This document shows, in pieces, positions 1,918-29,810 of a DNA stretch of 32,000 nt. The position numbers and the translations under genes are program-made. The DNA lies in NCBI RefSeq assembly GCF_000014265.1, contig NC_008312.1, positions 6,570,001 to 6,602,000 on the forward strand, read 5' to 3'. The stretch is from Trichodesmium erythraeum IMS101. GTDB lineage: Bacteria; Cyanobacteriota; Cyanobacteriia; Cyanobacteriales; Microcoleaceae. The first letter of the stretch is position 1; every line of letters begins with the position of its first letter. The notes below the pieces were generated by a model that made no database searches, had not been told where the DNA came from, and saw only the letters and a list, made by a program, of their open reading frames with translations.

Positions 1918-1937
1918 GTAGTGCTTTAGGTAAAACA

Positions 1938-2378: not shown

Positions 2379-2425
2379 TAGTATGCGATGCTTCCCATGA
2401 ATAGGCGATATCTATTTATTTAAAA

Positions 2426-2462: not shown

Positions 2463-2550
2463 TAAAATCATTGATTCTAATCATCCTGTATATTTTATCA
2501 GGAAAGCTTTTTGAGAATTTTGCATTACTATTCTGAGCACCCATGTTTTT

Positions 2551-2946: not shown

Positions 2947-2951
2947 TTTTT

Positions 2952-4336: not shown

Positions 4337-5470
4337 ATGCAAGACTGGAAAACAAACTTGTTAAACAAAATAGTAGAGAAATACGTAAATAACTCTAATG
4401 AGTGGGTGGAGTTAGAGTTTGATTTAAACAAAGTTTTAGAGTTAATAATAGTTTCTAACAATTTTTACGGCAAAAGTAGCCAGGAAAGGGGAATTTCTGT
4501 ATCTAAATATTTAAAGACTATAGGTGCAGATGAAATTAGCAAGTATTCAACGTATTATACTGTCGAAGAGTCTTACTCAATAAACCTACGCAAGCCAAGC
4601 AGGTTAAAATATTTTAACCCAAGTACTTGGCTTGAGCTGGCTTACTGTGCTGCAAACCCTCAGAACTATACAAAGGTAGAGCGAGTTAAGCGATCGCCGT
4701 CACCTAAAGTAATAGTGTTTTATTCTTACAGGGATTCAGGAGATAAAACCACAAGTGTAGCAATTACAGGCTTAAAACTGGTTGAAAAAGGCTATAACGT
4801 TGCACTGATGGATTTAAACCTAGAATCTCCAGGTCTAAGTGCCTTGATTAACCAAAAAGAATTGCCGAAAAAGGGTTTTGTAGATTATTTCTACGACAAA
4901 TCTTTTGGGAAAGTTGATGTCGAAGTTTCAATAGACCAAACATTTTTTGAAGTAAAAACTAAATTTGAATGGGCAGGCGGCAACCTGTTTGGCTTTTACC
5001 CAGGAGAATTATCGCCAGACTACACGTGTAAGTTAGAATACATTAACCCGCAAGTGGTTCTAGACGACAATGAAACACTCTGGTCTGTTCTAAAAAAGGA
5101 GGTATATGAACATTTAGACTTAGACTTTATACTAATAGATTCTGCTAGCGGTTTGAGTAAGTGGGCAGCGTTGTTACTAACACAGGCAGCAGACGAGGCA
5201 TTAATTTTTACTGATACCAGTGATAATAGCATTAATGGAACTAATTTAATATTAGAGGCCATTGATGTACTAGGCTTAAAGAAAAAAATAGTCCTTTCCC
5301 TTTTAGAGTTTGTCAACAAAGACAAGGCGATAGAAAATGCCTGGGAAAAAATTAATTTCAGTGTAAAAAGAGAGGATGAATTTTTTGTAGTTCCGCATTT
5401 TTCCTTAAACAATTATACAAATATAAACCAAATATATTCTAATATAGCAAGATTCATATATTCAAACTAA
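4337..5470 (+). CDS. ParA/MinD-like ATPase of the FYSYKGGVGR type, with variant P-loop and a ~120-aa N-terminal extension
   Basis: KVIVFYSYRDSGDKTTSVAITGLKLVEKGYNVALMDLNLESPGLS matches the FYSYKGGVGRT...DWDLEAPGL pattern of KGGVGR-motif variant ParA-like ATPases. Here KGGVGR is replaced by RDSGDK. ILIDSASGLS is Walker B-like. Confidence 0.65.
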   Translation: MQDWKTNLLNKIVEKYVNNSNEWVELEFDLNKVLELIIVSNNFYGKSSQERGISVSKYLKTIGADEISKYSTYYTVEESYSINLRKPSRLKYFNPSTWLELAYCAANPQNYTKVERVKRSPSPKVIVFYSYRDSGDKTTSVAITGLKLVEKGYNVALMDLNLESPGLSALINQKELPKKGFVDYFYDKSFGKVDVEVSIDQTFFEVKTKFEWAGGNLFGFYPGELSPDYTCKLEYINPQVVLDDNETLWSVLKKEVYEHLDLDFILIDSASGLSKWAALLLTQAADEALIFTDTSDNSINGTNLILEAIDVLGLKKKIVLSLLEFVNKDKAIENAWEKINFSVKREDEFFVVPHFSLNNYTNINQIYSNIARFIYSN

Positions 5471-11855: not shown

Positions 11856-12941
11856 ATGTTTAAAAGTCTAATAATTAAAAATTTCCGATGTTTTCAAGAA
11901 ATTACTATTGATAATATAGAACGAATTAATTTAATTGGAGGTGTTAATAATGTTGGTAAAACAGCTCTCCTGGAAGCAATTTTATTATTAAATAGTTTAA
12001 ATTCTATAGAAATTCCGTTTGAATTAAACTTTAATAGGGGAGTAATTCAACAACCAACTTTTGACATTGAAGAAATTTGTGAATGGTTATTTTATCAAAA
12101 ACAAATTGGTAAATCTATTAAAATTCAAACCATAGATGAAAATGGTGAAGAGAGAGAGTTGAAATTGAGTTTAGATAAAGCATTAAGTCCAAGATTATTT
12201 CCTTTAAGTTCAAAAACAAATAGCAGAAAAACTATCAAAGACTTAAAACTGGAGCTGAAAAAAGCAGGTCAAAAATTATTGGGTTTTACAGCATTTATAA
12301 CCATAGATAAAGAAGGAGAAATTAGGATAGAATTTCAGCAAGATGAAAAACAAAAAATTGAAGAAATACAACTTTTTTATCCTATTGTTTTTCATAGTAG
12401 TCGTTTAAAAGTTTCTTCAACAGAAAATGCAAAAGTGTTTAGTGATTTTGCACTAAAAAATGAACAAAATGAAATTGTAGAGATATTACAAATAGTAGAG
12501 CCAAGATTAAAACGTTTAGAAATTTTAGTCACTGGAGGAATACCTATTATTCATGGAGATGTTGGAGGAGATAATTTAATTCCTGTTGTATTAATGGGAG
12601 AAGGAATGGGAAGGCTATTATCTATGATTTTATCTATCATGAATACTCGAGGAGGAATAGTATTAATTGATGAAATTGAAAATGGCATACATTATTCAGC
12701 TATGGAAAAAGTTTGGCAGTCTATTAATATAGCAACTAGAAAGTTTAATACTCAACTTTTTGCGACTACTCATAGTTATGAATGTATTCATGCTGCTCAT
12801 CGAGCATTTTCCGACTCTGAATCATATAATTTTCGTTATTTTAGACTAGAGAGAGAAAAAGAAACTAATTCTATTAAGAGTTTAGTTTATGACAAGGATA
12901 ATATTGAAACTTCTTTAGGACTTAGCTGGGAGATGCGCTAA
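11856..12941 (+). CDS. ABC-type AAA ATPase (AAA_15/AAA_21-like)
   Basis: N-terminus is LIIKNFRCFQEITIDNIERINLIGGVNNVGKTALLEAI (Walker A). GIVLIDEIENGIHY is Walker B and D-loop, and FATTHS is the H-loop. Confidence 0.8.
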   Translation: MFKSLIIKNFRCFQEITIDNIERINLIGGVNNVGKTALLEAILLLNSLNSIEIPFELNFNRGVIQQPTFDIEEICEWLFYQKQIGKSIKIQTIDENGEERELKLSLDKALSPRLFPLSSKTNSRKTIKDLKLELKKAGQKLLGFTAFITIDKEGEIRIEFQQDEKQKIEEIQLFYPIVFHSSRLKVSSTENAKVFSDFALKNEQNEIVEILQIVEPRLKRLEILVTGGIPIIHGDVGGDNLIPVVLMGEGMGRLLSMILSIMNTRGGIVLIDEIENGIHYSAMEKVWQSINIATRKFNTQLFATTHSYECIHAAHRAFSDSESYNFRYFRLEREKETNSIKSLVYDKDNIETSLGLSWEMR

Positions 12942-13523
12942 ATGACTCATAATAAAAAAATTGAAAAGCCAAAGCTTATTATTGGTGAAGGAAAGGAAGA
13001 TTTCCTTTTTTTTTATTCACTAATTAAACATTTAAAAATTAATGATATTCAAGTGGATTTTTATAATGGAAAGAATAACCTTAATAATTATTTTAAAACT
13101 TTGCATTTAAAACCAGGTTTTTCTAATTTGTGCTCTTTAGGGATTACTAGAGATGCTGATCAATCGTTCGATACTGCTTCTCAAAGTATTGATAATTCTA
13201 TTATACAAAACCAATTAAATGAGAAAAAAAATTTAACCATCAAAAAATTTATATTTCCAGACAATAGTTCTTCAGGAATGTTAGAAGATCTTTGTTTAAG
13301 AGCGATTGATGATTCTGATATTGGTTGTATTACAGATTTTTTTCAGTGCATTAATAAAAACAAAAATATAAAACCAACTGAATTTTCTAAGGCTAAAATC
13401 CACGCCTGGTTGTCTAGTCAAGTAAAACCTGATAAACGTCTAGGTGAAGCTGCTCAAGCAGGATATATTGACTGGAATCACCCCAACTTTAACCCCTTGA
13501 TAAATTTTATAAAAAGTCTTTAA
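12942..13523 (+). CDS. DUF3226/Toprim-like small protein, partner of the ATPase
   Basis: The start abuts the upstream stop (TAAATG). LIIGEGKEDFLFF provides a Toprim-type Glu and LGITRDADQS provides DxD. The C-terminal SKAKIHAWLSSQVKPDKRLGEAAQ is as I remember the DUF3226 family. Confidence 0.6.
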   Translation: MTHNKKIEKPKLIIGEGKEDFLFFYSLIKHLKINDIQVDFYNGKNNLNNYFKTLHLKPGFSNLCSLGITRDADQSFDTASQSIDNSIIQNQLNEKKNLTIKKFIFPDNSSSGMLEDLCLRAIDDSDIGCITDFFQCINKNKNIKPTEFSKAKIHAWLSSQVKPDKRLGEAAQAGYIDWNHPNFNPLINFIKSL

Positions 13524-15825: not shown

Positions 15826-16105
15826 GGGACGACCAATGCCGTGTGTTTTAATCATTGGCTTGAGCATCATCCCTATTCCAGAACTCAATCCCCATTCCCT
15901 GTTGATTATGGATAACGCTCCCTTTCATCAGAAGAAAGAAATCCGGGCGCTCGCAGCTCTTGATGGGCACAGTGTTTTGTTCTTAGGGCCCTACTCACCG
16001 GACTTCAACAAGATTGAAGAAGATTTGGCCATTCTCAAAAAGCAACGGATATATGCTCCACCAGAAACAACACTGGATGACATTGTTAGACTGTACGGAA
16101 CTTAA
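15826..16105 (+). mobile_element. IS630-family transposase C-terminal fragment (frameshifted)
   Basis: TNAVCFNHWLE..., then after a frame change LLIMDNAPFHQKKEIRALAALDGHSVLFLGPYSPDFNKIEE. This matches the DNAxxH and PPYSPDLNPIE motifs. The N-terminal two thirds are missing. Confidence 0.7.
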
Positions 16106-16110
16106 TTGTA

Positions 16111-16902
16111 ATGACTATAGATATTAAACCAGCTCCTACAGCTCCAGATGGTGAAATTATGATGATCAAAGAGAATCACTTTTTAGATATATTTGATAGT
16201 GCTGATATGAGTTTATCATTTTTTGGGATTTGTATAAAAAATGCACCCTTATTAATTTTTGCTATTAGACTTTTAACTGCTGGATATCCTGCCAGAATTA
16301 AAGATAGAAATTTAGGGGCAAAATTACTAAATAAAGTCAAGGAAGTTGTGAGAGGTAATTATGATGTTAATACTTTTTTGAGTCAGGTTGATAATTGGTT
16401 TAATTTTCAAGCTAATTCTATTAATAGATTGCCAGAAAAAGTTCAGAACCAAAGGTTAACTGAACTGAGAGATTATAGAGATTGTTTGGTGGCTTTTTTT
16501 GCTAAATTTCAACCTAAAAGTTTGAATGATTGGAAAACAGAAATAGATAAGATTTTTGATGAATCAACTACTACTAAAAAAATTATAGATTTATATACTA
16601 TTCATAGTGGTAAAGGTGGAGAAGGACATTATACATTTATTATTTATCCTGAGAATATGCCTATAGAATTTGAGAAGCAAAGCACAGAAGAAAGGCAGCA
16701 GGAACAACACATGATATACGTTGCTTTAACCCGCTGCCTGACTCGTGCTAAGGGTGGTATTTTGTGGTTGGTGTTGGAAGGGAAAAAAGATACTGTAAAT
16801 TATCCAAAATGGCTACCACATGACTACCGGAAACTATGGAAAGATGATAAAGGTGAGTATTTTGAACTTGATTTTGAGGAATTGGAAGATATTGAGTTTT
16901 AG
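16111..16902 (+). pseudogene. UvrD/RecD-like helicase C-terminal fragment (N-terminus removed)
   Basis: IDLYTIHSGKGGEGHYTFII...QEQHMIYVALTRC matches helicase motifs V and VI of the UvrD_C type (TIHxxKGxE...YVAxTRA). There are no Walker motifs, and it starts right after the IS630 fragment. Confidence 0.5.
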
Positions 16903-16957: not shown

Positions 16958-19900
16958 TTAGCTAGTTTCAATACCATCATCAAGTCCTAATTCCTGGAGA
17001 GAAACTTTGGTTTCATTAATATTTTGAGATGTAATGCTTCCGGTTACAGAAAAATTAATTTCTACTGTTAAATTAAAATCTTTTTTTGCAGCAAACCTAC
17101 TCAGAACTTTTGTATAAAATTGCATCCACTTTTGAGGTGTAATTTCTCCTCGCCAAGAAATTATATTAGGAATATTTGATGTTTCACCTTCAGTAATTTC
17201 ATTAGTTCTATCTGACTTGGTTAAACTACTATCGGTAATATTATAATTTTCCGATTTTTCTTGGAGATGAGGTAACTTAAGCTCTACAGTAAATTTGGCT
17301 TTAATGCTAATATATTCTACTTGAGCAGTAACTATAAAATTCCCCTCATCTTTCCCGGCTGTTAAAACACCATTGAAGTTAATTTCTCCTCCTGTAGCAC
17401 TCCAGTTAATTTCTTCTACATTAATTGACCGGTTATATTGGTCTTTTCCTGTCACTAAAAATGTTTGTTTTTGACCAGGTTTTAAGAGAACTTCTTCAGG
17501 AGAAATAATTAATTGAGTTAATCTGGGGGGGTCTTTAATTCTAGCTTCATAATCTTCTGCTACTTCTGCTTTAATTACAAATACATCATCAGATATTTCT
17601 ACATCTTGAACAGAAAAGTTGGGTTGATTAAATATAAAAGGTTCATAACCATTTTTACTTTTCCCCACATAAGCTAATAATCCTTCCCGTACTCCATGAA
17701 CAATAGCTTCTGGCACAGCTTTAGCTTCTAATAATCTAGGAAAAGTTGGGGAAGCAAAAAAGGCATCCTGAATATTTTTAATACTCCATTCTGTAAAAAC
17801 AGGCGGCCAATTTCTGAGTAAAAACCGAGGATGAATGACGCTTGTAATTTCTCCATTAGCCTGTAGACGATTGATAATTAAACTTACCATTGAGTTAGCT
17901 TGACTCGAATTAAGCATTCCTAAATCAATCCACTGAATCTCTTGAATCTCTGGAATCTCTGGATTTTTTCCCCACAAAGCAACAGATGTATAAGACTGCC
18001 AAACAGTTTCTTGTAATAACTTTTTCGACTTGTCAATATTTTCCTTAAGTTGCTGTTTTTGCTCGGCATTTAATTCTGTTTCTTGGTCGCTAATATCCTC
18101 CCAAGCTAATAAATTTCTGGCTCGTTCTCTCAGGAGATTATCAGGATTAGCCACCACAAAAATTATCGCACTCTTAAAAGTTCTAGCTGAACTACCACAA
18201 TTTAATATTATTGATTCTATAAATTTGCTTGTCTCCTCATCAGAACGAACATATTCGGGACTTAAAATAGCTAAATTCAGCACTGGTCGGTTGGCAATAC
18301 TATTAGTATATTCTGGAAAATAAACAACTTGAATTACCCCATTAGTAGTAAAAACTTTTTTAATTTCGGCTGCGACTCTTTCCTGTATTCTAGAACTTTG
18401 TATATTGGCTCGACGGTCTGCTAAAATTTTATTCAAGTTGGGAGAAATATTAAACCGATATCTATTCTTATTTACCAATAAATAATAACTTTCATTTTGC
18501 AATGCTTCCAAAACTGTTTCTACATTGACAATATCAAAATTTGGCTCTCCCACTGCTAACCTAATTTCAGGAATAGTTGCTTCGGTGTTTTGTTGACCGC
18601 CATTAGATTCAAAAAATATAGTAGTTGCGACTTTTCGATGGAGACGAGATTTTTTAATGGTTGCTACTGCTTCCTTATCTAACCGGATAGCATGAGCATT
18701 CTGCTTACCACAAATATCTGTGGTGACAGCACCCTCTAAACGCTCTTCGCCCAACTGATTAAATACTGCGGTGCGAAACAGAGGGTCGTCTAGGGGAGCA
18801 TTACCCAAACCAATGAGTGGGTCGTTGTGAACTTTTCTGTAACTTTCTTGATAGGCACGAGCAACCCAGAGTGCTAATAGTCTCAAAATACCCCTAGTTC
18901 GTTGAAACCTTGGTAAAACTTGCCACTTACGCTCAAATACTGACAAAACTGTGGGGTGAAATGGGTAGGTAGCGATGAATGCTTTTTGGGCGTTATCAAC
19001 GTTAAACCAACTAGGTATTTGCTGGTGGTGGGATATCACCCATTCAGCGTATTCATTACAGGTGGCGATCGCATCTCTGGGCAACATAATTTTACCTTCG
19101 GTAGTAACCGCTTCTTTATCCCACTCAAACAAACGACGACGGATAATTTCTGAAGTTTCTGACTCTGCTGACATAACTATAGCTTTTCCCAGACGGTCTA
19201 ACATTTTTTTAAGTCGTTGTTCGTCTGCTTCGTCTGCTTGGGTATATTCCATTTCTGAAGCTGGAATAGACACCACTAAAACAACATTTTCTAAACTTCT
19301 AGCTGTTTCAGAAAGTGCCTGCAAAAAATTATAAAAGCGGTTATGATATTCACGACTGCGATAAGTAGAAATATAGTTAATAATTTCATCCATTAAAATT
19401 AAACAGGGTCTATCTTTTGGAAATAATTTCCGAATCACATCACCCTTGGGTTCGATAAAATTTTTCTCATGTTCAGCAACATAATTAAAAGCTGTTTCTC
19501 CTCCTAATTGAAAAGCAATTTCTCCCCAGGGAGTTTTCCGTAGCGGAGTACCATCATTTCCACCTCTACCAGTAATAGAATCAAATTGTACTCCTACAAA
19601 AACTGCTACTGCTGCTTCGGGAATAGAATTAATTTTTGCTGTTTTGAGAATCTTATCTACTCCAGTCCAATTATTAGCTAAACTGCCATTTTTTGCTAAA
19701 TGATATAGTAAAGTTAAGGCGTGAGTTTTACCCCCTCCAAATTGAGTAGAGAGGTTAAAAATAGCTGAAGTACCGCTAGTTTCTCCAGACAAACGACGGA
19801 CAACTTGAGATGCTAAGTCGGTCAGAGATTTTGTTAAATAAGTCCGTTCAAAGAAACGCTCCGGTTGCTGATAATCTACCGGAGCATTATTGTTACGAAC

Positions 19901-20005
19901 TTGGTCGAGATGAATGGCAAATTCAGAAGTATCTAAAGGTTTACCTTCTCGTAAATCTTCTCTAGGAATTAAACCATCTATTTTGTACCATGCTTTAATT
20001 GCCAT
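16958..20005 (-). CDS. DUF499-type ATPase (anti-phage associated) with a C-terminal Ig-like (Big_2-like) segment
   Basis: FNLSTQFGGGKTHALTLLYHLA is Walker A and PCLILMDEIINYIS is Walker B. The large alpha-rich body is typical of DUF499. Near the C-terminus is LLKPGQKQTFLVTGKDQYNRSINVEEINWSATGGEINFNGVLTAGKDEGNFIVTAQV. Confidence 0.8.
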   Translation of the reverse strand: MAIKAWYKIDGLIPREDLREGKPLDTSEFAIHLDQVRNNNAPVDYQQPERFFERTYLTKSLTDLASQVVRRLSGETSGTSAIFNLSTQFGGGKTHALTLLYHLAKNGSLANNWTGVDKILKTAKINSIPEAAVAVFVGVQFDSITGRGGNDGTPLRKTPWGEIAFQLGGETAFNYVAEHEKNFIEPKGDVIRKLFPKDRPCLILMDEIINYISTYRSREYHNRFYNFLQALSETARSLENVVLVVSIPASEMEYTQADEADEQRLKKMLDRLGKAIVMSAESETSEIIRRRLFEWDKEAVTTEGKIMLPRDAIATCNEYAEWVISHHQQIPSWFNVDNAQKAFIATYPFHPTVLSVFERKWQVLPRFQRTRGILRLLALWVARAYQESYRKVHNDPLIGLGNAPLDDPLFRTAVFNQLGEERLEGAVTTDICGKQNAHAIRLDKEAVATIKKSRLHRKVATTIFFESNGGQQNTEATIPEIRLAVGEPNFDIVNVETVLEALQNESYYLLVNKNRYRFNISPNLNKILADRRANIQSSRIQERVAAEIKKVFTTNGVIQVVYFPEYTNSIANRPVLNLAILSPEYVRSDEETSKFIESIILNCGSSARTFKSAIIFVVANPDNLLRERARNLLAWEDISDQETELNAEQKQQLKENIDKSKKLLQETVWQSYTSVALWGKNPEIPEIQEIQWIDLGMLNSSQANSMVSLIINRLQANGEITSVIHPRFLLRNWPPVFTEWSIKNIQDAFFASPTFPRLLEAKAVPEAIVHGVREGLLAYVGKSKNGYEPFIFNQPNFSVQDVEISDDVFVIKAEVAEDYEARIKDPPRLTQLIISPEEVLLKPGQKQTFLVTGKDQYNRSINVEEINWSATGGEINFNGVLTAGKDEGNFIVTAQVEYISIKAKFTVELKLPHLQEKSENYNITDSSLTKSDRTNEITEGETSNIPNIISWRGEITPQKWMQFYTKVLSRFAAKKDFNLTVEINFSVTGSITSQNINETKVSLQELGLDDGIETS

Positions 20006-20116
20006 AATGATAATATTTTTCTCCTTTTTTTGTTCCTAATTGAAGCTATAGCCTCATTCTGCTAATTCTTAGACAGAACACTGTAGGTGAGGTTTAATCC
20101 GGCAAACAAACAAAGT

Positions 20117-20695
20117 TCAAAAAAGTGTAAATTTGCCAATATTCACCTCCATTAACCACCACTTAAAGAAATCGTAGGGAAATGTCAAAGCTGCTTCTCT
20201 ACTTCCTACTACAACTAAAGTTTCTCCCTGTAAATCTAATCTTTCTCTTGGTAAAATAGGTTGTAAAATTTCCCGTTCTAAATAATTAATTAATTCTCTT
20301 CTTTCTCCAGCAGTTTGGCAATAACAAAATACCACCCGTAAAGCCACTCGCACACAGAGAACTTTCCACAAAGAATAAGCACTGCGTTCCCAATTATTTT
20401 CTAATTCTATAACTGCAATAGGAAACTGCCAGCGTTGAGCAGCACCAACAAACGCCATCACATCCATTGTTAAAAACTCATTAGTAGCGACTGGCAACAA
20501 CTCTAGAGAATAACCTTTAGCTGATGCTTGCCATCCCAATGTTTGACAAGTAGAAACTACTACAGCAGTTAAAGCTGAAGTCCACTCCTTAAGTTGTTTT
20601 TGCTCTCCGGCAGTTTGGAGAGTTTGAGCATGGGTAGGTTGTTGTACGACTTGCCAAAAAGCCGATCGCCATTTTTCAGCTAAGTTAGTTTGCAC
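20117..20695 (-). CDS. hypothetical protein (192 aa) inside the helicase-methylase-ATPase operon
   Basis: GTG start 9 nt after the PIN gene stop. No motif securely recognised. TMDVMAF...FPIAVIELENNWERSAYSLWK could be a PD-(D/E)xK-like core. Its size and position fit the small accessory gene (DUF3780-type) that I recall in such operons, but this is unverified. Confidence 0.55.
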   Translation of the reverse strand: MQTNLAEKWRSAFWQVVQQPTHAQTLQTAGEQKQLKEWTSALTAVVVSTCQTLGWQASAKGYSLELLPVATNEFLTMDVMAFVGAAQRWQFPIAVIELENNWERSAYSLWKVLCVRVALRVVFCYCQTAGERRELINYLEREILQPILPRERLDLQGETLVVVGSREAALTFPYDFFKWWLMEVNIGKFTLF

Positions 20696-20704
20696 TTTTG
20701 AAAA

Positions 20705-21190
20705 TTACTCTCCCACTGACATCAAGACTTGATTCATTAATCTCTCTGATAGATACATTCCAGACAACCTTAACTGTTCTAAAACAGGACGTGCTTCTGA
20801 AATTACTCCACGTTGTTTGGCAGTTAAAACTAAACCCAAAGTACCTCTCACCGGAATTCCTAACGCTTGGGCACAACGACGAGCAGCTAAATCATCAATA
20901 ATCACTTCTGTATTTGGGTGATGATACCCCCAACTCAAAACCTCTGATTCTCCTGCTCCTAAATCCCAACTTTGAATCACAGCAGGAATAGCAGGAGTTT
21001 GAGTCACAACTAACCAATCTGTTTGAGCTAACATTTGGGCAGTTACATCTGTGTTTCCGTAGGCTTGAATTTCTGTAGCTACTGCTTGAGGAACAATAAT
21101 TTTTGGACTCAGCATTTGCAGGAAGTTGAGCAAATTTGCTTGAGTCAAAAAAATCAAAGGTGAAGTATTTACTGCCGGAAATTCAGCCAC
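20705..21190 (-). CDS. DUF3368-family PIN-domain toxin
   Basis: NTSPLIFLTQANLLNFLQ...IIVPQAVATEI...LGAGESEVLSWG...VIIDDLAARRCAQALGIPVRGTLGLVLTAKQRG is the typical DUF3368 pattern. The GTG start overlaps the antitoxin stop (GTGGCTGA). Confidence 0.8.
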   Translation of the reverse strand: MAEFPAVNTSPLIFLTQANLLNFLQMLSPKIIVPQAVATEIQAYGNTDVTAQMLAQTDWLVVTQTPAIPAVIQSWDLGAGESEVLSWGYHHPNTEVIIDDLAARRCAQALGIPVRGTLGLVLTAKQRGVISEARPVLEQLRLSGMYLSERLMNQVLMSVGE

Positions 21191-21434
21191 GCTCTAACTC
21201 CCGTTGCAAATCATTAAAATCAACATTAAACACATCTATTTTTTCCCTTGCTAAACTAGCGAGAAAATCTCGACGGTTTAACCCGGCAACTTGAGCTGCT
21301 TTTTCTTGAGAAATTTCCCCTTTTTGATACCAATATATAGCTGCTGCTAAACGCATATCCCGAACAAATTCTTCAGGAGCTAAACGGCGGGCAGAAAAAA
21401 TTTCTTCTGGTAAATTAATAGTAATTTCTGACAT
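21183..21434 (-). CDS. UPF0175-family antitoxin
   Basis: ITINLPEEIFS...DMRLAAAIYWYQKGEISQEKAAQVAGLNRRDFLASLAREKI fits the UPF0175 pattern. It has an 8-nt overlap with the PIN gene. Confidence 0.8.
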   Translation of the reverse strand: MSEITINLPEEIFSARRLAPEEFVRDMRLAAAIYWYQKGEISQEKAAQVAGLNRRDFLASLAREKIDVFNVDFNDLQRELERG

Positions 21435-21533
21435 GATTATTTATGTAAAATTACTGGGATTTAATCAGATAAAGTAGAAAATTTAATGGACATTTTAGAC
21501 AATATCCTCATAACAATTTTACCATTACTTCTG

Positions 21534-24500
21534 CTAAAAACCCAATCCTTTTTTCCTTGCCAATATTCCCTCTAACCAACGTTTCTCTTCCACATTCTGA
21601 GGATATACCCGCAATAGGGCATCTGCTAAATTCCAAAATCTGGGGTCTTTGCCTACTCCCTCCTCTACTAATAGTCGTTTCACTGCTTCGCTACGTCCTG
21701 TTTTGTGTAACAACATGGTTTGATGTATCCGGTCTAATACGGTTTTGCCTATCTCAGCGATCGCTATATCTGCTTCTACTTCTATTTCAGTTTCTTTTTC
21801 TGGCAAAATACCTTCTAAACTTAGTTGTTTTGGAGTCTTACTTTTGCGTTTTTTAGTATTAGTAGTAGGGGCAACTTTTCCGATTAAATAATGACTCCTT
21901 TCTTGTACTGGTAAAAGTCTGGCTTTATTACCTTTTATTTCTACTAAATGGGTGAGGTTTTCTAGGTGCGCTCCTAAACCTTGGGCGATTTTGCGGGCGG
22001 TGTCAAACTCTAAGGCAAAACCTGTAGATTTTTGATTTTTGCTGGCGGGGGTGTCTTCCTCATCTTGGTCTGACTCTGTTTCTGTTGCTGATTCGGTGCT
22101 GCCAGTAGAAAGCGTCCATAACCAAATGACTGTGAGACGAGCGTCTGCTTCCAGGTTATTAGTGTCAGCTTCCGAGAATATCTGTTTTAAGGCTTCGTTT
22201 GCTACTGTTCCCCAGAGATATTCTAGGTATTCGCCCAAAGTGACTGGTTGCCCATTGACTTTTTCCACGCTGGAGTAACGAGAGAATATTTCTAGGGCGG
22301 GTCCGATACAAGCAAAGATAGCATCAGCACCGACTATACCTTCTGATGTCAGACGTGGCATCCAGTCTTGGATGCGTTGGGGTAGCTCTTGGATGATGTC
22401 GCGCCAGTCGCCGATATTGTTATTGTTGCGGGGTCGGCAAACAAGATGGATGGATGAGGCGAGGGCAGCAGAGTTTTGGGCGCGGGGTCTGTTGCCCCTT
22501 TCTGTGTCTATTGCCCAGGATGCGGTTATTTTCCAACCAGCATCTATCATTGCTTGTAGTTGAGCTTCCCATCCAGCAGTTGATTTGTGGGCAAAGACAA
22601 TAATACCTATTCCGTCTGAGGATATGATGCGACATCCTTCTGCCATTGCTTTTGCCATCTGGGTTTCAAACCATTTGCCGTTTTTGTGTGGGTATCTTTT
22701 GGAATCCCATCCTGCCATTTCACAAATTTCATCATCTTTCGGAGTAGTTTCACTAGAAAATAAGTTGGGGTAGGTTTTGTTTAGAGTTCTTTTTAGCCAG
22801 ACATAGAAAAAGTCGGATAAGTCAGCGTAGGGTACAGCGTTGTAATAAGGAGGATCGGAAAAGAAGCATTGAGTAAAGTCGTCTGGTAGGGGGTGACTCG
22901 CTGCATTTGCTTGTTGGGTTTGACCGGGGTCGGGTAATAATGATGCTTTGATGACGGATAAAACCCAACTGACAGCACCTTGCCAGTATCCGTCAGAACC
23001 TCCCACTAGATTTGTTTCTCCAAAATCCCAAAGCATGGGTAAAGCTTGCCTAGCGAAAACACCGTCTATTAACTCTCGACTGTTATTCCACTTTGATAGA
23101 GAGCAAAACTGATTAGTGCAGCGATCAACTGCCAAAGCCAAACAAGTCTGAATAGCGATCGCCAACCTTTCATCCTCATTACTAGCCAATTTTTTTCCCA
23201 CTTCCTTAACTAACCTCACCAAAGTAGTTAAAGCTAAAGCTTGACGAGAAGAAAATAAACTTCCCCAGGTGTTATGTCCGTAAATGGGCGCATTAAAAAC
23301 ACCGCTCATAACTGGCACCGGTTCATCCGGCACCAAACTCAACTCCCCACCATACTCCAACTTCCGCCTTGCCAACTCCTCACCTGCCATTCTCACCGCT
23401 TCCAAATCTCTCTCATTGGGCAACCGATAAAACCTACCCTTCACCTTCTCCCTAGTCGTCACCACACAAAACAACCGGGCATCATCCGCACCCCCACCCC
23501 TTGCTTGCAACTGCTTTCGCACCGAAGCCACCGGAGTCGTAAACCCACAACAAGGACAAGTCGCTGAACCTCGTTTCACCGTTCCATCCCCAACATCTTT
23601 CCCTTTCACCTGCTCCACAATCTCAAAATCAACTCGCTTTTCCTCCTGCCGAGGAATCAACCGTAACGCCACCGACCGATTCTTTTTCTTTGCCAACCAC
23701 AAACTCCGCATCAAAGGAACCTCCGCCCCACATCCAGGCCCCTCACAAACAATCGTCCGCGCCCAAAGATAAGCAATAGGTGTTTCCACATCCCCATTCT
23801 TAAGTGTTGCAGCAGATTTAGGATAAAACTCCCCCAATTCCTTTTCTGCCTCCTGCTTTATCCATTCTCCCCACTTACGCACCTCATCCGCCAAAGTTTG
23901 CCCATACTTAGGAATATATTCCAACACAACCTTATTTAACAAAACCGCCACCGGATTCAAATCAGAGGCAAAAGCATCTGCTCCTACCCGCAAAGCCTCC
24001 AAAGGAATCGCACCTCCACCCGCAAAAGAGTCAAAAACTACGGGTTTTGTATCAGTAATTCCTCCTAAAGAATAATGACTAATTTCTGTTAGTTTACGAC
24101 TGGTTTGTAAATAATCTGGATGTGTAGAATTATCCCAATTAGCAAAGTCAGCAATAAAGTCTAATAAGCGATAACGGAGTATGTTTAAATGTTCTATTTT
24201 TTCTGGATTTAACTGATTTTTAGGTTTAGCTAAAACTTGCCATTTTTTTAGGTTTGCTGTGGAGCCATGATTATCTAAATTTTTATCAACTATTTTGGCA
24301 AAACCATTAATAACTTTTGCAGCCTCAACCCGAAACAATTCCGGGCAATTATCATCAACTGGGTCTAACCAAAGAGCAGCACAAATTACAGCCCGACAAG
24401 CAGCCAAAGGTCGTCTTGCCCACCAAATATGTAAGGTCGAAATATGACCGTGACGAATTGATTTTTCTCGTCTAGCATGGGCAGAGATTTGTTTAATTGG

Positions 24501-24539
24501 GAGGTCTACTTCAATTAAGCGTTTGGGATAATTTGTCAT
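21534..24539 (-). CDS. DUF1156-domain DNA methyltransferase (DPPY type)
   Basis: The DUF1156 N-terminus is LIEVDLPIKQISAHARREKSIRHGHISTLHIWWARRPLAACRA. VFDSFAGGGAIPLEA is the SAM-binding motif I and FFSDPPYYNAVPY is motif IV. A Cys4 ribbon is CEGPGC...CPCCG. Confidence 0.85.
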   Translation of the reverse strand: MTNYPKRLIEVDLPIKQISAHARREKSIRHGHISTLHIWWARRPLAACRAVICAALWLDPVDDNCPELFRVEAAKVINGFAKIVDKNLDNHGSTANLKKWQVLAKPKNQLNPEKIEHLNILRYRLLDFIADFANWDNSTHPDYLQTSRKLTEISHYSLGGITDTKPVVFDSFAGGGAIPLEALRVGADAFASDLNPVAVLLNKVVLEYIPKYGQTLADEVRKWGEWIKQEAEKELGEFYPKSAATLKNGDVETPIAYLWARTIVCEGPGCGAEVPLMRSLWLAKKKNRSVALRLIPRQEEKRVDFEIVEQVKGKDVGDGTVKRGSATCPCCGFTTPVASVRKQLQARGGGADDARLFCVVTTREKVKGRFYRLPNERDLEAVRMAGEELARRKLEYGGELSLVPDEPVPVMSGVFNAPIYGHNTWGSLFSSRQALALTTLVRLVKEVGKKLASNEDERLAIAIQTCLALAVDRCTNQFCSLSKWNNSRELIDGVFARQALPMLWDFGETNLVGGSDGYWQGAVSWVLSVIKASLLPDPGQTQQANAASHPLPDDFTQCFFSDPPYYNAVPYADLSDFFYVWLKRTLNKTYPNLFSSETTPKDDEICEMAGWDSKRYPHKNGKWFETQMAKAMAEGCRIISSDGIGIIVFAHKSTAGWEAQLQAMIDAGWKITASWAIDTERGNRPRAQNSAALASSIHLVCRPRNNNNIGDWRDIIQELPQRIQDWMPRLTSEGIVGADAIFACIGPALEIFSRYSSVEKVNGQPVTLGEYLEYLWGTVANEALKQIFSEADTNNLEADARLTVIWLWTLSTGSTESATETESDQDEEDTPASKNQKSTGFALEFDTARKIAQGLGAHLENLTHLVEIKGNKARLLPVQERSHYLIGKVAPTTNTKKRKSKTPKQLSLEGILPEKETEIEVEADIAIAEIGKTVLDRIHQTMLLHKTGRSEAVKRLLVEEGVGKDPRFWNLADALLRVYPQNVEEKRWLEGILARKKGLGF

Positions 24540-24760
24540 TTTAGTTATCAGTTATAATTTATCAGTTATATCATGTTTGGAGCATCAACTAAAATACACT
24601 TGCTCTCCCGAAATACCTATTGAATGACAAATACATAACTTCTCTGTTTTGTCAAGTTTTATCTTAAGAAAAATATTTATAAAGCATAGCTCTTTCAAGA
24701 GAATAAGAAAAAGAACATTCCATACTTCAAACCTCTCTATTACAAGAGTTACTAATAAAT

Positions 24761-24789
24761 GACATAACAGACATCCTACCTGTTATGTC
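24761..24789. promoter_or_regulatory. perfect 10-bp stem hairpin between the helicase and methyltransferase genes
   Basis: gacataacag (24761-24770), a 9-nt loop, then ctgttatgtc (24780-24789). It lies 33 nt past the helicase stop on the transcribed minus strand. Confidence 0.5.
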
Positions 24790-24821
24790 AGTTATAAACT
24801 ATCCATTACTTTATTGATACT

Positions 24822-27800
24822 TTATTGACTAGCACTAATAATTTTACTTGCTTCAACCTGATAATGTTCAATCTTATTCAAAGGTTCCCACCCTAACTTT
24901 ACCGGGTTATTAATCGTATAAACTTCTGAATTTGTCGCACAATTAAAAACTACATAAAGCCAATAATCTCCTTGCAACCTAGCAGCAGTTTGATACTCAT
25001 TATTTGTTAAAACCACAGTACCTACAGTTGCCCTACCTTTTACCTCAATAAATCTTACACTAATAGCCGTTTGAATATCTTCGGGATGAGGTTTCCGAGA
25101 AATCAAATCAAAACCCCGATTTTGGTTTTCTACACTCTCCACTTGCCAACCCCTCCCCCTTTCATACTCCATTACCTTATCAATAGCAATACACTCAATA
25201 TCCCGATCGCTCACCATAGGAGCTAACTCTGGAGAAGAGCGTTCTGGATGGGGCAAAACCAGAGCGCAACCATAATGATGCACCCCCGAAATAGCACAAC
25301 TCGCCTCTTTTTCCAACTCCTCCCGGCGAGACTCCAACCTACCATTCAACTCAAACAAACGGTCATCCATCTGTTTTATTCGCCCATCTAACCCTGCCTC
25401 CTTAGAACCCGCTTCCTTTTCTGCGTGTAACTCAGCAAACTGGCATTGTACCCGGTCAATAATTGTATTCAAACTAATCTCTGTATGATTAAGAATACTC
25501 TTGACTTCCTGCTGACGTTGTGCTAAATTTTCTGCCAAGAATGGCTGCAACGCTTTTTCATATAGAGCCAATTCTACCCATTCTAACCTCGGTCTTTCCA
25601 TATCCACCTCTGACAACTCCGACAATTCCGCCACAGCTAAATCTAAAAACACAGTAGGTTGACGTACTATCATTTCACCATCAGACCTTGTTTCTACTAC
25701 AAACAACCGCTCATGCAGTTTCCGTCCCCGACCATCCACAATAGCAGCAGCAAACACATCTAAATAACTAGGTTTCCGGCGATGCAAATCATAAAATATT
25801 GCCCCCCGTTGTAAATCTTCCGTGACTATTTCCCCTACTTTTTCTCGCACACATTCAAATAAAGGATGCCCCGGTGTCACCCATTCCAAGGTAGGGTCAC
25901 TTTTGAGTAAGTCCTTATCAAAGATAATTTTTTTATATTCTCGCCCTAGTTTGCCATATTGAGGTTCCAAGCGATCGCCCACAGACCACAAAGTACGAGG
26001 CAGTTTTCCCACTCGATAAATGTGGGAATTTTTCTTGACTTCCTTAGGATGAATACCTGCTATGGGAGCAGCTTTGAGAAAGAAATTTTCAATACTTCTT
26101 GGCATCAGTCGGTTTTCCTTAGCTTCAGTAGACTTACCTATTAATTTAGATAGGTTAAGCTCCCGTTTTGCTAATCCTTCTAAAGCTGAATTAGTAATTT
26201 TTTGAAAATGTTTGCTGTCTACCTGTTGGACAATTCTATCTTTGATACCATCCTCACTAATATTACGAGCATACATATCTCGTAACATCTTTTCTAGTTG
26301 GTTAGCAGGAAAAATATCTCCCAAAACATTAAAGACTTTACCCGTATTTTCGGGGTCTAAGTCAGCTTCGATGGCGTAAATACGTTCAAACAGTTTCCAC
26401 AAAACCCTACCTTCTCTGGTATTAGTAGCAACAAAGTTAAAAATTAGACAGTCTTTTTCCTGCCCATAACGGTGAGTTCTACCCATACGTTGTTCTAAAC
26501 GGACTGGGTTCCAGGGAATATCATAATTAATAGTTAGCCAACAAAACTGTAAATTAATACCCTCTCCTGCTGCTTCGGTAGCAACTAATATCTGTGCATC
26601 TTCACGAAACTCTCGTTCAGCGTAAATACGAGTTTGGGGAGTATCCCGGTCTCCTATTTTCATCCCCCCATGAATTTGAGTTACTGATAATTTCCAGCCT
26701 CGAAGTTTGCCAACCAAATAATCTAATGTGTCTTTATGTTCGGTAAAAATTAATAGTTTCATCTTCCGGTCTTGGAAAATACCTTTGCTAGTTATTATTT
26801 CTTTTAGCTTGACTAATTTTGATTCTATTTCCCGTTTTTCTAACTCTAAAGCTAAATAAATTAACCTGGTTAATTGAGCAATTTCATCTTGTAAATTTCC
26901 AGGATTTACTGAAGCTACTACTGACTCTAAACTTTCCCTGATTTTATTCTGTTCCTGCTCAGTTAAATCCTCAAAATCATTAGGCAAATGACGACTAATT
27001 TTTTGTTCTCGATAACCTTGAGGATCATCGATAATTTTTTGTCGTTTTTCTTTCATCCGTTCCAAACTGCGACGGATAGCAAACATACTAGAAGCAAACC
27101 GACGTTGTAGCATTGCCATAGTAAAACCTAATGCTCTTCCCCTAGCAGAATTATCTTTAGAAGCTTTAATTGATTGGTCTTCAACATAGCGAGTTAGAGC
27201 ATCGTAAAAGTCTAATTCAGCATCATCTATTTGAAATTCAATAGTTTCTACTTTACGGTTAGGAAAAAGTTTTTTTACTTCCTTAGTTTCGGGGTCAGGA
27301 AATGTGACAAGTGCTTCTTTTGTTCGGCGTAAATAAAAAGGAGCTACATTGTTTACCATTGCCTCCTCTAAACTTCTCACATCCCCATAAACATCTTTAT
27401 CTAATAGTTCTAAAAATAGACAAAAATTTTTAGGGTCACCTTTGTGGGGAGTAGCCGTCATTAATAAATAATGATCAGTCATTTCTGATAGTTTTTCTCC
27501 TAACTGATAAGCTAAAGTTTTTTTATCAGATTTATAAGCACTCATTTTATGGGCTTCATCAACAATAATTAAATCCCAATTAGAACGCAATAAACTTTCT
27601 TTAGCATCTTGAATCCGAGAAACCCAAGAAACAGAAGTAACAATTTGAGATTTTTCTTGCCAAGGATTATTACCATAATTAGCTCTGAGAATGTCACCTT
27701 TTACTACTTCAAAATCTTCTCTAAACTTATCCTTAAGTTCCCGTTGCCATTGAAAAGTTAGATTAGCAGGAGCTACAATTAATGTGCGTTGAACTAATCC

Positions 27801-28238
27801 CCTAATTTTTAACTCTTTCAACAATAAACCAGCCATAATAGTTTTACCAGCTCCTGGGTCATCTGCTAGTAGAAACCTAATTCGAGGTAACTTAAGAAAG
27901 TAATCATAAACGGCTTCTAACTGATGAGGTAGGGGGTCTACACGAGCGATCGCTAAGGAAAAATAGGGGTCATATTCGTAGGCTAATTTCCAACGTAAGG
28001 CCTCTACTCCTAAGCGAAAACTGGCAGAATTGCCATCAAAAAGTTTGGTCTTGGTAATAGCACTAAGAGAAGCAATTTGTTGAGGAGTAAGAATAGGGTC
28101 ATAAACTTGATTTGTTTGAGTTCCTTTACCAATTAATTTGATAGATTCCCCCATATGATTTGTAGTAATTATCTGAACTGGTTCAGAGAACAAAGAACCT
28201 GTAATTATTATGTTTGGTTGCAGTTCTGTTATTTGCAT
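24822..28238 (-). CDS. SNF2-family helicase with a C-terminal DUF3883 (restriction-endonuclease-like) domain
   Basis: Helicase motifs are LLADDPGAGKT (I), DLIIVDEAHKM (II), LLMTATPHKG (III), LVATEAAGEGINLQ and WNPVRLEQRMGRTHRYGQ (VI). The C-terminus GFDLISRKP...RFIEVKGR...VVLTNNEYQTAARLQGDYWLYVV is the DUF3883 pattern. Confidence 0.9.
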   Translation of the reverse strand: MQITELQPNIIITGSLFSEPVQIITTNHMGESIKLIGKGTQTNQVYDPILTPQQIASLSAITKTKLFDGNSASFRLGVEALRWKLAYEYDPYFSLAIARVDPLPHQLEAVYDYFLKLPRIRFLLADDPGAGKTIMAGLLLKELKIRGLVQRTLIVAPANLTFQWQRELKDKFREDFEVVKGDILRANYGNNPWQEKSQIVTSVSWVSRIQDAKESLLRSNWDLIIVDEAHKMSAYKSDKKTLAYQLGEKLSEMTDHYLLMTATPHKGDPKNFCLFLELLDKDVYGDVRSLEEAMVNNVAPFYLRRTKEALVTFPDPETKEVKKLFPNRKVETIEFQIDDAELDFYDALTRYVEDQSIKASKDNSARGRALGFTMAMLQRRFASSMFAIRRSLERMKEKRQKIIDDPQGYREQKISRHLPNDFEDLTEQEQNKIRESLESVVASVNPGNLQDEIAQLTRLIYLALELEKREIESKLVKLKEIITSKGIFQDRKMKLLIFTEHKDTLDYLVGKLRGWKLSVTQIHGGMKIGDRDTPQTRIYAEREFREDAQILVATEAAGEGINLQFCWLTINYDIPWNPVRLEQRMGRTHRYGQEKDCLIFNFVATNTREGRVLWKLFERIYAIEADLDPENTGKVFNVLGDIFPANQLEKMLRDMYARNISEDGIKDRIVQQVDSKHFQKITNSALEGLAKRELNLSKLIGKSTEAKENRLMPRSIENFFLKAAPIAGIHPKEVKKNSHIYRVGKLPRTLWSVGDRLEPQYGKLGREYKKIIFDKDLLKSDPTLEWVTPGHPLFECVREKVGEIVTEDLQRGAIFYDLHRRKPSYLDVFAAAIVDGRGRKLHERLFVVETRSDGEMIVRQPTVFLDLAVAELSELSEVDMERPRLEWVELALYEKALQPFLAENLAQRQQEVKSILNHTEISLNTIIDRVQCQFAELHAEKEAGSKEAGLDGRIKQMDDRLFELNGRLESRREELEKEASCAISGVHHYGCALVLPHPERSSPELAPMVSDRDIECIAIDKVMEYERGRGWQVESVENQNRGFDLISRKPHPEDIQTAISVRFIEVKGRATVGTVVLTNNEYQTAARLQGDYWLYVVFNCATNSEVYTINNPVKLGWEPLNKIEHYQVEASKIISASQ

Positions 28239-28599: not shown

Positions 28600-29399
28600 T
28601 TTTGAAATAGACTAAGTTCTTCAAAGAAATTAGGCCCTTTTGGTGTGACAAAGCTCTTGGTTAGATAGAGGATTAGTTTTGTGTAAAGAGGCAAAGCTAA
28701 ACCAGGATAAACAGGTTTTTGAGCCTATCCTACCTAGGAATGTCAAAATTGTCTCTGACAACTTGTCGAAAATAGTCAAAGAGATTATATTAGTAATGAA
28801 ACCCAAGAACTGATTGATAAATTAAAATAGAGAAAAAATTAGTTTGGCTGGTATAATCCGTGTAATAGGTATGTCAAAAAAATAGCCCCAGAATTACGTC
28901 AATAATAAGTATGCTCAGGTTTCACGCTCTATTAAATGTACTAAAAAAAACCGGTAAACTCACCATTCAATGTGATGAAATGTGGTCATTTATAGGCAAT
29001 AAAAATAATAAACAATGGCTGTGGTTAGCGATTGATATAGAAACTCAATAAATTGTGGGTTTCTACTTAGGGGAAAGAGGAGAAAAAGGGGCAGCATAGA
29101 TTATGGAATTCTAACCCACGGTGTCTTAAGGCCGTGTGCAGTTTGTTATACAGATTTTGGGTCAGCTTACGAGCTTGTTTTTCCTGATTACAAGACATAA
29201 ATCAGTGGGGAATATTCAGGTTGAACAACTTATATAGAAAGATTAAATAATACTTTGCGTCAAAGAATTTCTCGGTTGGTCAGAAAGACTTTATCCTTTT
29301 CTAAAAAGCTTCGGTCCCATCTAGGAGATATTTGGTATTTCATTAATCATTATAATGAAGCGATCGCTTCACTGTAATTTTATCACTACATATACAGGA
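28600..29399 (+). mobile_element. decayed IS1-family element (copy B carries the right end; left boundary uncertain)
   Basis: Frames read EKISLAGIIRVIGMSKK*, then KKTGKLTIQCDEMWSFIGNKNNKQWLWLAIDIETQ*IVGFYLGERG and TDFW...NNTLRQRISRLVR...IWYFINHYNEAIASL*. Stops and frameshifts show it is inactive. Confidence 0.7.
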
Positions 29400-29810
29400 A
29401 CACCTAAATTTAAAAGTGCAGACCATATTTTAACCAAAGTAAATAACATGACTAGGGCGAATAAATTAATCGGACTTTCCCCATTATTTGACCAAAGAAT
29501 TGTAGAACTAAGTTTAGAAATTCTACCAAAATATAAATTATCCGGCGCAGATGAAAAAGCAGTATTAAAACAAGCAGTAGCAGACCTATTACCAGAGAAA
29601 ATATTAACCCGTCCCAAAAGTGGAATGATGGTACCTGTTAACTTTTGGTTTCGTAAAATATGGCAGCGTCGAACCAAGAATTTATTGTTAAGTAAAAAAG
29701 CAGCGATCGCTCCCTATATCAATCAAGATTTAATCAAAGATTGGTTAAATTATCAGGGAGATACTTGGAGGCGTTATGGAATTAAACTTTGGTTATTAGT
29801 TAGCCTATAA
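29400..29810 (+). pseudogene. asparagine synthase family gene, C-terminal fragment
   Basis: SPLFDQRIVELSLEILPKYKLSGADEKAVLKQAVADLLPEKILTRPKSGMMVPVNFWF is the C-terminal synthetase-domain pattern. The track ORF 29355-29810 borrows its start from IS1-end sequence. Confidence 0.65.

Follow-up and report, generated by a model that had tools for sequence, protein, structure and literature searches.

The chromosome of Trichodesmium erythraeum IMS101 carries, within the 32,000-nucleotide (nt) stretch analysed here (the window), a minus-strand locus at window positions 16958-28238 that we read, with a probability of roughly 75%, as a complete Hma (helicase, methylase, ATPase) system, that is, a Type-1, DUF499-centred BREX-related (BR) system, situated in a decaying defence island and accompanied by a toxin–antitoxin (TA) cassette and a 192-aa accessory protein linked to the ATPase HmaC. 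The operon itself is a textbook Hma locus and mostly ordinary, and its TA pair is routine; what stands out is the gene for the 192-aa protein, which is a conserved, unannotated and Hma-specific accessory and makes for a four-gene subtype of Hma. Specifically, this gene (20117..20695, minus strand, GTG start) is an Hma-exclusive accessory that travels with hmaC, not a fourth core gene. An exact-sequence look-up identifies it as Tery_4272 (ABG53269.1) and the ATPase gene as Tery_4271, and two flanking genes likewise encode IMS101 proteins.

Hma, a known type of anti-phage operon akin to restriction–modification, was named and defined in 2021 (Payne et al., PADLOC; PMC8565338), and a 2026 survey renamed the family BR systems, with a Type-1 that comprises only ATPase, methyltransferase (MTase) and helicase (Rakesh & Krishnan, PMC12839542). 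An earlier note on this DNA had recognised such a trio here, and the PADLOC profiles for HmaA, HmaB and HmaC indeed all match it, with motifs intact. Likewise, a scan of open reading frames (ORFs) recovers the six co-oriented minus-strand ORFs where they had been placed, with the core genes in the order A-B-(three genes)-C that is also found in related loci. The first of them, hmaA (24822..28238, minus strand), encodes a 1138-aa Swi2/Snf2 helicase with a C-terminal NOV_C (DUF3883) PD-(D/E)XK nuclease domain; the PADLOC HmaA profile aligns across residues 1-1114 (2.2e-194), the Pfam families SNF2-rel_dom (2.4e-19), Helicase_C (5.6e-21) and NOV_C (2.4e-20) each score over their gathering score, and the protein contains GAGKT at 129, DEAH at 227 and a C-terminal GFDL...IEVKG (D...EVK). 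The second, hmaB (21534..24539, minus strand), encodes a 1001-aa DUF1156 N6-adenine-type DNA MTase that is mosaic and has a GC-rich centre; it matches PADLOC HmaB at 2.3e-135 and Pfam DUF1156 at 1.6e-21, and FAGGG at 172 precedes DPPY at 562, so that motif I comes before motif IV. The third, hmaC (16958..20005, minus strand), encodes a 1015-aa DUF499-type ORC/Cdc6-like AAA+ ATPase in which the Walker A sequence FGGGKTH (89-95) and D206-E207 of the Walker B sequence LILMDE (202-207) are invariant in its clade. All three core genes are thus intact, and none of their catalytic motifs is missing.

The placement of these proteins in the families DUF3883, DUF1156 and DUF499, which the earlier note had also proposed, stands in Pfam for the first two; for the third it fails in Pfam and stands in PADLOC. 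HmaC matches the PADLOC profiles HmaC (4.2e-120) and DUF499 (1.5e-30), as well as NCBIfam DUF499_antiphage (5.3e-43), in the last case under the model's cut-off because that equivalog models the Type-2 protein. No Pfam family reaches E<=0.01, so Pfam DUF499 is unmatched, and the ‘DUF499’ label therefore rests on PADLOC, on NCBIfam and on the naming of homologues in RefSeq, where plasmid proteins 56-64% identical to HmaC are called ‘DUF499 domain-containing protein’. The clade to which HmaC belongs is distinct: its members are 44-69% identical to one another among 80 related loci and at most 29% identical to all other DUF499 proteins in 143 plasmid records. HmaC lacks an N-terminal HEPN fusion, and its C-terminal ~170 aa are hypervariable.

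The assignment to Hma, as opposed to Type-2 (MANTIS), Type-3, BREX or DISARM, follows from the absence of a PLD domain, of DUF3780, of PglZ and of DISARM partners. Neither Pfam nor PADLOC places a PLD domain at the helicase's N-terminus, and the PLD_Helicase profile matches only the core (residues 430-620). PglZ, BrxA and BrxB are not present in the locus, and no window ORF that was scanned matches the PglZ or BrxB families. The NCBIfam model DISARM_DrmD scores 382.8, well short of its cut-off of 610, and the partners DrmA, DrmB and DrmC were not found in the window.

It is the 192-aa gene that sets this locus apart from the published three-gene definition. The protein belongs to no family in Pfam, NCBIfam, PADLOC or PHROGs, and a Pfam search of 22 family members at E<=10 returned only noise. 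Nonetheless the family is large, with 1042 homologous clusters at 90% identity that are 45-63% identical over their full length and all ~190-195 aa long; in a profile search of 1.84 billion representatives, all members are stand-alone, without fusions, and measure ~190-205 aa when full length. Scanning one genome per species with patterns derived from the 192-aa protein alone yielded the 80 loci used throughout for comparison, which come from Cyanobacteriota, Chloroflexota, Acidobacteriota, Planctomycetota, Verrucomicrobiota and several other bacterial groups, and among archaea from Methanothrix, ANME-2 and Methanoperedens. When gene content is compared across these operons, as the earlier note had suggested, the TA pair occurs in 4 of 80, and the 192-aa gene, through which the loci were retrieved, is followed downstream by an hmaC homologue in 79 of them, the contig of the eightieth stopping just after the gene. 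HmaB and HmaA are encoded upstream wherever the contig reaches, giving the order A-B-X-C (X being the 192-aa gene). The gap between X and hmaC is at most 60 nt in 69 of 79 loci, with a median of 20 nt; that between hmaB and X is at most 60 nt in 46 of 77, and there overlaps of 1 or 4 nt are frequent. The divergence of the 192-aa protein also follows that of its neighbours, with Mantel r of 0.78 against HmaC and 0.76 against HmaA (p = 0.0005), compared with 0.87 between HmaA and HmaC.

These observations bear directly on the idea that the 192-aa gene is just another independently mobile defence or cargo gene with no functional tie to Hma, which is how one might understand the description of it, in the earlier note, as an extra embedded gene. 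Hma loci are embedding hot spots, close HmaC relatives carry the gene in only about one case in three, and its distribution on the HmaC tree is patchy, as that of a cargo gene might be. However, in 79 of the 80 loci it goes with hmaC, the contig of the eightieth being cut; its position and orientation are fixed, its divergence tracks that of HmaA and HmaC nearly as closely as theirs track each other, and genuine cassettes (TA, EVE+ASCH, Mrr, PLD) have entered both before and after it, mostly without splitting it from hmaC: inserts are found at the A-B junction in 40 of 57 loci, at the B-X junction in 26 of 77, and at the X-C junction in only 8 of 79. We therefore consider a mere cargo gene very improbable, and the earlier description gives way to that of a family seen in Hma operons only, at a fixed place next to hmaC.

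It is just as important that the gene is far from universal, and several counts speak against an essential or core role. Among HmaC-anchored metagenome loci with enough upstream sequence, it is present in 19 of 60; among plasmid loci of the HmaC clade, in one of seven. On a quick neighbour-joining tree of HmaC, carriers and non-carriers interleave, with 20 state changes as opposed to 33 (minimum 27) in label shuffles. In many non-carrier metagenome loci hmaB directly abuts hmaC, and in others different genes lie between the two. HmaC is of similar length in carrier and non-carrier groups (974 and 971 aa), and a hidden Markov model of the family finds no copy elsewhere in the non-carrier loci, their hmaB and hmaC ORFs included; together these results argue that no fusion compensates for the absence of the gene. 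A role as the fourth core gene of all Hma systems is thus ruled out, given that about two-thirds of close HmaC relatives, like the canonical three-gene loci, lack the gene, and its patchy presence indicates a dispensable, Hma-exclusive accessory that has been repeatedly lost. One close relative without the gene, on Planktothrix agardhii plasmid p4 (L086:7128-8953), has three genes of ~200 aa between hmaB and hmaC, which encode a protein with an HsdR N-terminal domain, an endonuclease of the Uma2 family and a hypothetical protein.

We found no description of the 192-aa family in the literature, the supplementary tables of which are searchable by accession or organism only and may record it. Likewise, the family was not found in the supplements of the papers on embedding and on BR classification, although an accession and organism look-up of such long and partial tables is weak evidence.

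We infer that the 192-aa protein acts as a subunit on, or together with, HmaC. Its sequence is slowly evolving, with 30 near-invariant positions, and across 101 unique bacterial and archaeal sequences E73, D78, E97, E99, N100, Y107 and K111 are 100% invariant; all seven are polar or aromatic and five are charged, and R120 and R152 are conserved in at least 98%. An AlphaFold2 (AF2) model of high predicted quality (predicted local distance difference test, pLDDT, 88; predicted template-modelling score, pTM, 0.88) begins with three helices (that at 35-52 among them), which are followed by three strands (55-59, 79-83, 94-98), another helix (102-113), a fourth strand (119-126) and additional alpha/beta elements. 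The order alpha-beta-beta-beta-alpha-beta in this model is that of the restriction-endonuclease fold, with D78 at the start of strand 2, E97-x-E99 on strand 3 and K111 on the helix that follows. We liken this E-x-E arrangement to the BamHI-like variant of the PD-(D/E)XK scheme. The position of the gene is also suggestive, as it occupies the place 5′ of the DUF499 frame where many Type-1 ATPases carry a fused N-terminal HEPN RNase (PMC12839542), and in a relative that lacks it small nucleases (HsdR_N, Uma2) fill the interval between hmaB and hmaC. The invariant residues, the fit in fold order and the position of HEPN fusions in other Type-1 systems are the grounds on which we tentatively put forward, as the likeliest of the roles considered though at less than even odds, that the protein is an HmaC-linked, metal-dependent, restriction-endonuclease-like enzyme and so a predicted second effector of the system.

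Several results weigh against an endonuclease. The motif is E-x-E and not the canonical (D/E)-x-K. A Foldseek search of the Protein Data Bank (PDB) with the model gave nothing at E<=1e-3, the best match being a domain of acetyl-CoA carboxylase with a template-modelling (TM) score of 0.44, and a search of BFVD also gave nothing at E<=1e-3, with nuclease names borne by few of the weak matches. Comparison by hhalign with NOV_C, HsdR_N, Uma2 and Mrr showed no similarity to the 192-aa protein, and a profile search of PDB sequences with the family gave no match. By hhalign the protein also showed no relation to the HmaA NOV_C domain, to the middle or N-terminal parts of HmaA, or to the small nucleases (HsdR_N, Uma2, Mrr) found at the same position in relatives. 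An analogy with BrxB/iSTAND was likewise set aside, as BrxB is fast-evolving and the 192-aa family slow, and there is no fold match either.

A different way to understand the protein comes from MANTIS, in which, according to a September 2026 preprint, a DUF499 ATPase loads a DUF1156 MTase, a small DUF3780 protein (MtsB) is required for hemimethylation of asymmetric 6-bp sites, and a helicase-nuclease restricts unmodified DNA (bioRxiv 10.64898/2026.09.23.753747). The 192-aa protein might be the Type-1 counterpart of MtsB, namely a small dimer without catalytic activity, which acts together with the AAA+ ATPase to activate methylation by the DUF1156 MTase. The two are of the same size (192-195 aa), the gene for each lies between those for DUF1156 and DUF499, conservation is unusually high in both families, the 192-aa gene is frequently coupled translationally to hmaB (-1 or -4 nt overlap), and the authors of the MANTIS preprint themselves invite such a reading. 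However, the two are not homologous by the searches made (BLASTP E = 20; hhalign probability 0.09%), the order of secondary-structure elements differs, although the AF2 model of DUF3780 is poor (pLDDT 51), and the invariant acidic cluster of the 192-aa protein looks catalytic. Furthermore, MtsB is essential in MANTIS, whereas the 192-aa gene is missing from about two-thirds of close Hma relatives without compensation, and it is linked more tightly to hmaC than to hmaB. A co-activator of the MtsB kind is on these grounds unlikely. The rest of our weight lies with neither a nuclease-like effector nor a co-activator, but with something else. As for the family as a whole, with its more than 1000 relatives, we give slightly less than even odds to the broader proposition that it defines a four-component Hma subtype, present in numerous bacterial phyla as well as in archaea that are methanogenic or methanotrophic, and that within this subtype a small enzyme-like protein, slow to evolve and with neither a recognisable homologue nor a solved fold, works with the DUF499 ATPase.

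The other two genes between hmaB and the 192-aa gene are of a more familiar kind. The UPF0175 antitoxin-like gene (21183..21434, minus strand; 83 aa) and the DUF3368 PIN-like toxin gene (20705..21190, minus strand; 161 aa) form an embedded TA cassette, and their identification in the earlier note as a UPF0175/DUF3368-PIN module is borne out by both Pfam domains, which lie above the gathering cut-off (UPF0175 2.6e-25, DUF3368 6.7e-16), and by PADLOC PDC-S70 (6e-12 for UPF0175 and 6.2e-63, over the full length, for the PIN protein). The antitoxin gene precedes the toxin gene and overlaps it by 8 nt, as expected of a PDC-S70 pair, and a gap of 9 nt separates the PIN gene from the 192-aa ORF; both spacings are exactly as first described. 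The PIN protein keeps the family-typical N-T-S-P-L, GES and DD motifs, as its homologues do, and inactivation of the toxin through an N in place of D in the first motif is ruled out, as the N is present in all homologues.

Calling this an unusual insert, as was done at first, overstates the case: embedded genes are usual in Hma (62.7% of 1,485 systems, bioRxiv 10.1101/2024.01.29.577857; 66.5% of loci, PMC11232893), and the TA family is already known as PDC-S70. Within the four loci that carry the pair, L051 has it at the B-X junction, like the window, and L007, L044 and L067 have it at the X-C junction. The carriers are cyanobacteria together with Gemmataceae and Rhodopirellula (Planctomycetota), and occurrence at two junctions in separate lineages indicates repeated independent capture. 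At the same junction, other loci have an EVE+ASCH pair, a nuclease of the Mrr or PLD kind, or an AbiEii-type toxin. In Hma loci of methanogens an ORF pair of ~445 and ~145-160 aa recurs between hmaB and the 192-aa gene (L026:1031-2840 and, by size, L032, L038 and L058, from Methanothrix and relatives); the L026 pair, the only one covered by the Pfam scan, carries EVE and ASCH, which are modified-base reader domains.

We read the TA pair as an ordinary, independently acquired embedded cassette, predicted to serve as an addiction or abortive-infection backup module on which the function of Hma would not depend. It is also worth considering that the pair could be a functional part of Hma, namely a backup abortive-infection effector that is freed when Hma is inhibited, by a logic like that of PrrC, and not a selfish addiction cassette. 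In favour of this, the rarer backup effectors recorded as embedded in BREX-related systems include PIN endoRNases (PMC12839542), the family is already a PADLOC defence candidate, the pair is packed tightly inside the operon, and there were at least two independent captures, at different Hma junctions, in cyanobacteria and Planctomycetota. Its rarity among related loci argues the other way, as does the sister Trichodesmium lineage (L088:5328-6156; 92-97% DNA identity), where a clean 490-nt deletion takes out the PIN gene exactly while the rest of the operon is intact; the orphan UPF0175 gene left there, called at 86 aa, overlaps with its end the start of the 192-aa gene by 11 nt. Furthermore, UPF0175/DUF3368 pairs are common as stand-alone type II TA modules in cyanobacteria and archaea. 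A functional role within Hma is for these reasons doubtful, and the ordinary cassette remains our preferred interpretation. Compared with other type II pairs of this kind, the pair itself is unremarkable, and its embedding at the junction of hmaB and the 192-aa gene alone is lineage-specific.

The composition of hmaB tells a different story from the one first proposed. The gene is visibly GC-rich, as the earlier note had said (0.443, against 0.338 for the window outside the locus), but the foreign origin held to be consistent with this fits less well than a mosaic MTase gene. The GC content at third codon positions (GC3) is 0.38 overall, rises to 0.48-0.54 across aa 201-400 with a peak of 0.54 at aa 301-400, and is 0.21-0.28 in the other five genes. 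Relative to the copy in the sister Trichodesmium lineage (L088:2201-5227), HmaB is 88-100%, mostly 92-100%, identical outside aa 401-650, and within this block (window 22590..23339) the identity drops to 60-68%, with indels. The swapped block overlaps the most variable region of the HmaB family (approximately aa 351-650) and includes DPPY562, and HmaB co-diverges poorly with HmaA, HmaC and the 192-aa protein (Mantel r 0.26-0.41). The swap and the weak co-divergence point to MTase segments having been exchanged by recombination, in other words to specificity switching, and not to a foreign origin of the whole operon. The swapped block of ~250 aa looks like a target-recognition segment, and as the GC-richest stretch (aa 201-400) and the swapped one do not coincide, there may have been more than one exchange event. 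The two Trichodesmium lineages, with their swapped MTase segment and deleted PIN gene, thus offer a naturally occurring test of how specificity switches and cassettes turn over in a diazotroph of ecological importance.

With regard to expression, the tight spacing within the locus had been taken to mean that the genes are probably co-transcribed. For the locus as a whole this is less certain, given a terminator-like hairpin (24760..24790, minus strand) in the 282-nt spacer between hmaA and hmaB. The hairpin lies 32 nt past the hmaA stop and has a 12-pair core stem, extended to 16 pairs in the minimum-free-energy fold, and a T-rich tail; its fold of -15.5 kcal/mol (z = -3.2) was equalled in stability by 0 of 200 shuffles, and it is unique within the window. 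As the hairpin and its T-rich tail are followed by promoter-like hexamers, hmaA may form a transcription unit separate from hmaB-UPF0175-PIN-X-hmaC, as far as consensus patterns go. The remaining spacers are 99 nt between hmaB and the UPF0175 gene and 111 nt between the 192-aa ORF and hmaC. The locus tags Tery_4271-4276 had no match in the searchable literature, where we sought transcript, transcription start site or methylome evidence, and no phage data on this locus were found either.

The surroundings of the locus have the character of a partly decayed defence island. On the plus strand, a 627-aa protein with TIR_2 and AAA_35 (5e-151) domains, annotated in IMS101 as ‘Toll-Interleukin receptor’, is encoded at 7622..9505 and is a possible further immune gene. 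At 11856..13523 (plus strand), where the DNA is very rich in AT (GC 0.25-0.29), lie genes for an ABC-type ATPase (AAA_15/AAA_21) and, next to it, a DUF3226 protein; they match PADLOC PDC-M38A/B and AbiLi/AbiLii and constitute a second candidate defence pair, and a 377-aa ORF at 4337..5470 (plus strand) matches PADLOC PDC-M28B (7e-19). Eight short ORFs of 114-194 aa lie back to back at 361..4108 (plus strand), of which 882..1466 and 1456..1917 match the same part of PADLOC NsnA, the second also matching Pfam GmrSD_N; these ORFs look like what is left of a larger defence gene after duplication or fragmentation. Directly after hmaC are a DDE_3 transposase piece and a UvrD_C/GajB-like piece (15836..16902, plus strand), and upstream of hmaA is an asparagine-synthase C-terminal piece (29355..29810, plus strand). 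The flanking fragments are consistent with insertion and decay around the island.

One could ask, then, whether the Hma locus is itself a decaying remnant that no longer serves in defence. The fragments on either side of hmaC and hmaA and the NsnA pieces (882..1917) lend themselves to this view, and Trichodesmium genomes are rich in pseudogenes and non-coding DNA. However, all six ORFs are full-length with motifs intact, the same sequence is present at 100% identity in several independent assemblies, and the sister lineage keeps the three large ORFs open, with the PIN deletion as the only exception, so that we regard a defunct system as extremely improbable and retain the complete Hma system as the interpretation of the locus.

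The statement in the earlier note that the mechanism of such systems is essentially uncharacterised is outdated. HmaA of Halomonas meridiana protects Escherichia coli against T4, and both its helicase and its PD-(D/E)XK nickase are needed (Liu et al. 2024, PMC11232893); the reclassification as Type-1 BREX-related systems (PMC12839542) and the biochemistry of MANTIS (bioRxiv 10.64898/2026.09.23.753747) add to this. By analogy with Halomonas HmaA and with MANTIS, the AAA+ ATPase HmaC would load the MTase HmaB onto short asymmetric sites, HmaB would mark self DNA through N6-adenine methylation, and unmodified sites on incoming DNA would license the Snf2 motor-nuclease HmaA to translocate and to nick or cut; the central segment of HmaB that was swapped between strains would, by the same analogy, set the site specificity. 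Two observations speak against so direct a transfer from MANTIS: overexpression of Halomonas HmaB left T4 sensitivity unchanged, HmaA alone being protective (PMC11232893), and HmaC is at most 29% identical to other DUF499 proteins.

A specialist would be unsurprised by the operon and probably interested in the small protein. The PADLOC definition of 2021, the ‘guilt-by-embedding’ study of 2024 and the BREX-related classification of 2026 all describe Type-1/Hma as a three-gene system, and by our reading of the shortlisting method (bioRxiv 10.1101/2024.01.29.577857) embedding screens keep genes that also occur outside Hma, so that a gene found only in Hma would be filtered out. The 192-aa family is large, crosses the divide between bacteria and archaea, has an invariant set of residues that looks catalytic, and occupies the place that in Type-2 systems belongs to the gene for the enigmatic MtsB and in other Type-1 systems to a HEPN fusion. 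It could thus provide a handle on how DUF499/BrxC-type ATPases couple to methylation or restriction, which is also a question for BREX. If either proposal made for it holds, it would be a new minimal ATPase-gated nuclease effector or a second, unrelated solution to MtsB-type co-activation.

It is informative to place the locus among the systems that it most resembles. With Hma and Type-1 BR systems it shares the Snf2 helicase with a C-terminal NOV_C/PD-(D/E)XK nuclease, the DUF1156 MTase with FxGxG before DPPY, the DUF499 AAA+ ATPase, the A-B-C gene order and the cassettes embedded between core genes. It differs in the divergent HmaC clade described above, which lacks the N-terminal HEPN fusion, and in the conserved gene of ~192 aa that about a third of this clade adds to the published three. 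The likeness to Type-3 BREX (BrxC, the BrxXI MTase and the BrxHII helicase) and to DISARM DrmD lies in the helicase, which scores 9e-92 with PADLOC BrxHII and 3e-128 with DrmD, and in the BrxC-like ATPase. The 192-aa protein may also be compared with PrrC in type I restriction–modification systems (EcoprrI) and with HEPN fused to the N-terminus of DUF499, which are effectors found almost only within or beside one host defence system; it is unrelated to these in sequence or fold, has neither an Rx4-6H motif nor an invariant histidine, and any dependence on Hma is a prediction from genomics. The closest functional parallel is MANTIS (Gao_RL, the Type-2 BR system MtsA-D), which has in common with the present locus a DUF499 ATPase, a DUF1156 MTase, a superfamily 2 (SF2) helicase-nuclease and a stand-alone protein of ~195 aa encoded between the ATPase and MTase genes. 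In MANTIS, however, the genes run in the reverse order, the nuclease is an HKD/PLD domain at the N-terminus as opposed to the C-terminal PD-(D/E)XK domain found here, and the small protein, DUF3780, is essential and nearly universal in that system and has no sequence similarity to the 192-aa family. Even so, MANTIS probably offers, by analogy, the best mechanistic template for the Trichodesmium system: ATPase-loaded hemimethylation, followed by restriction through a motor-nuclease.

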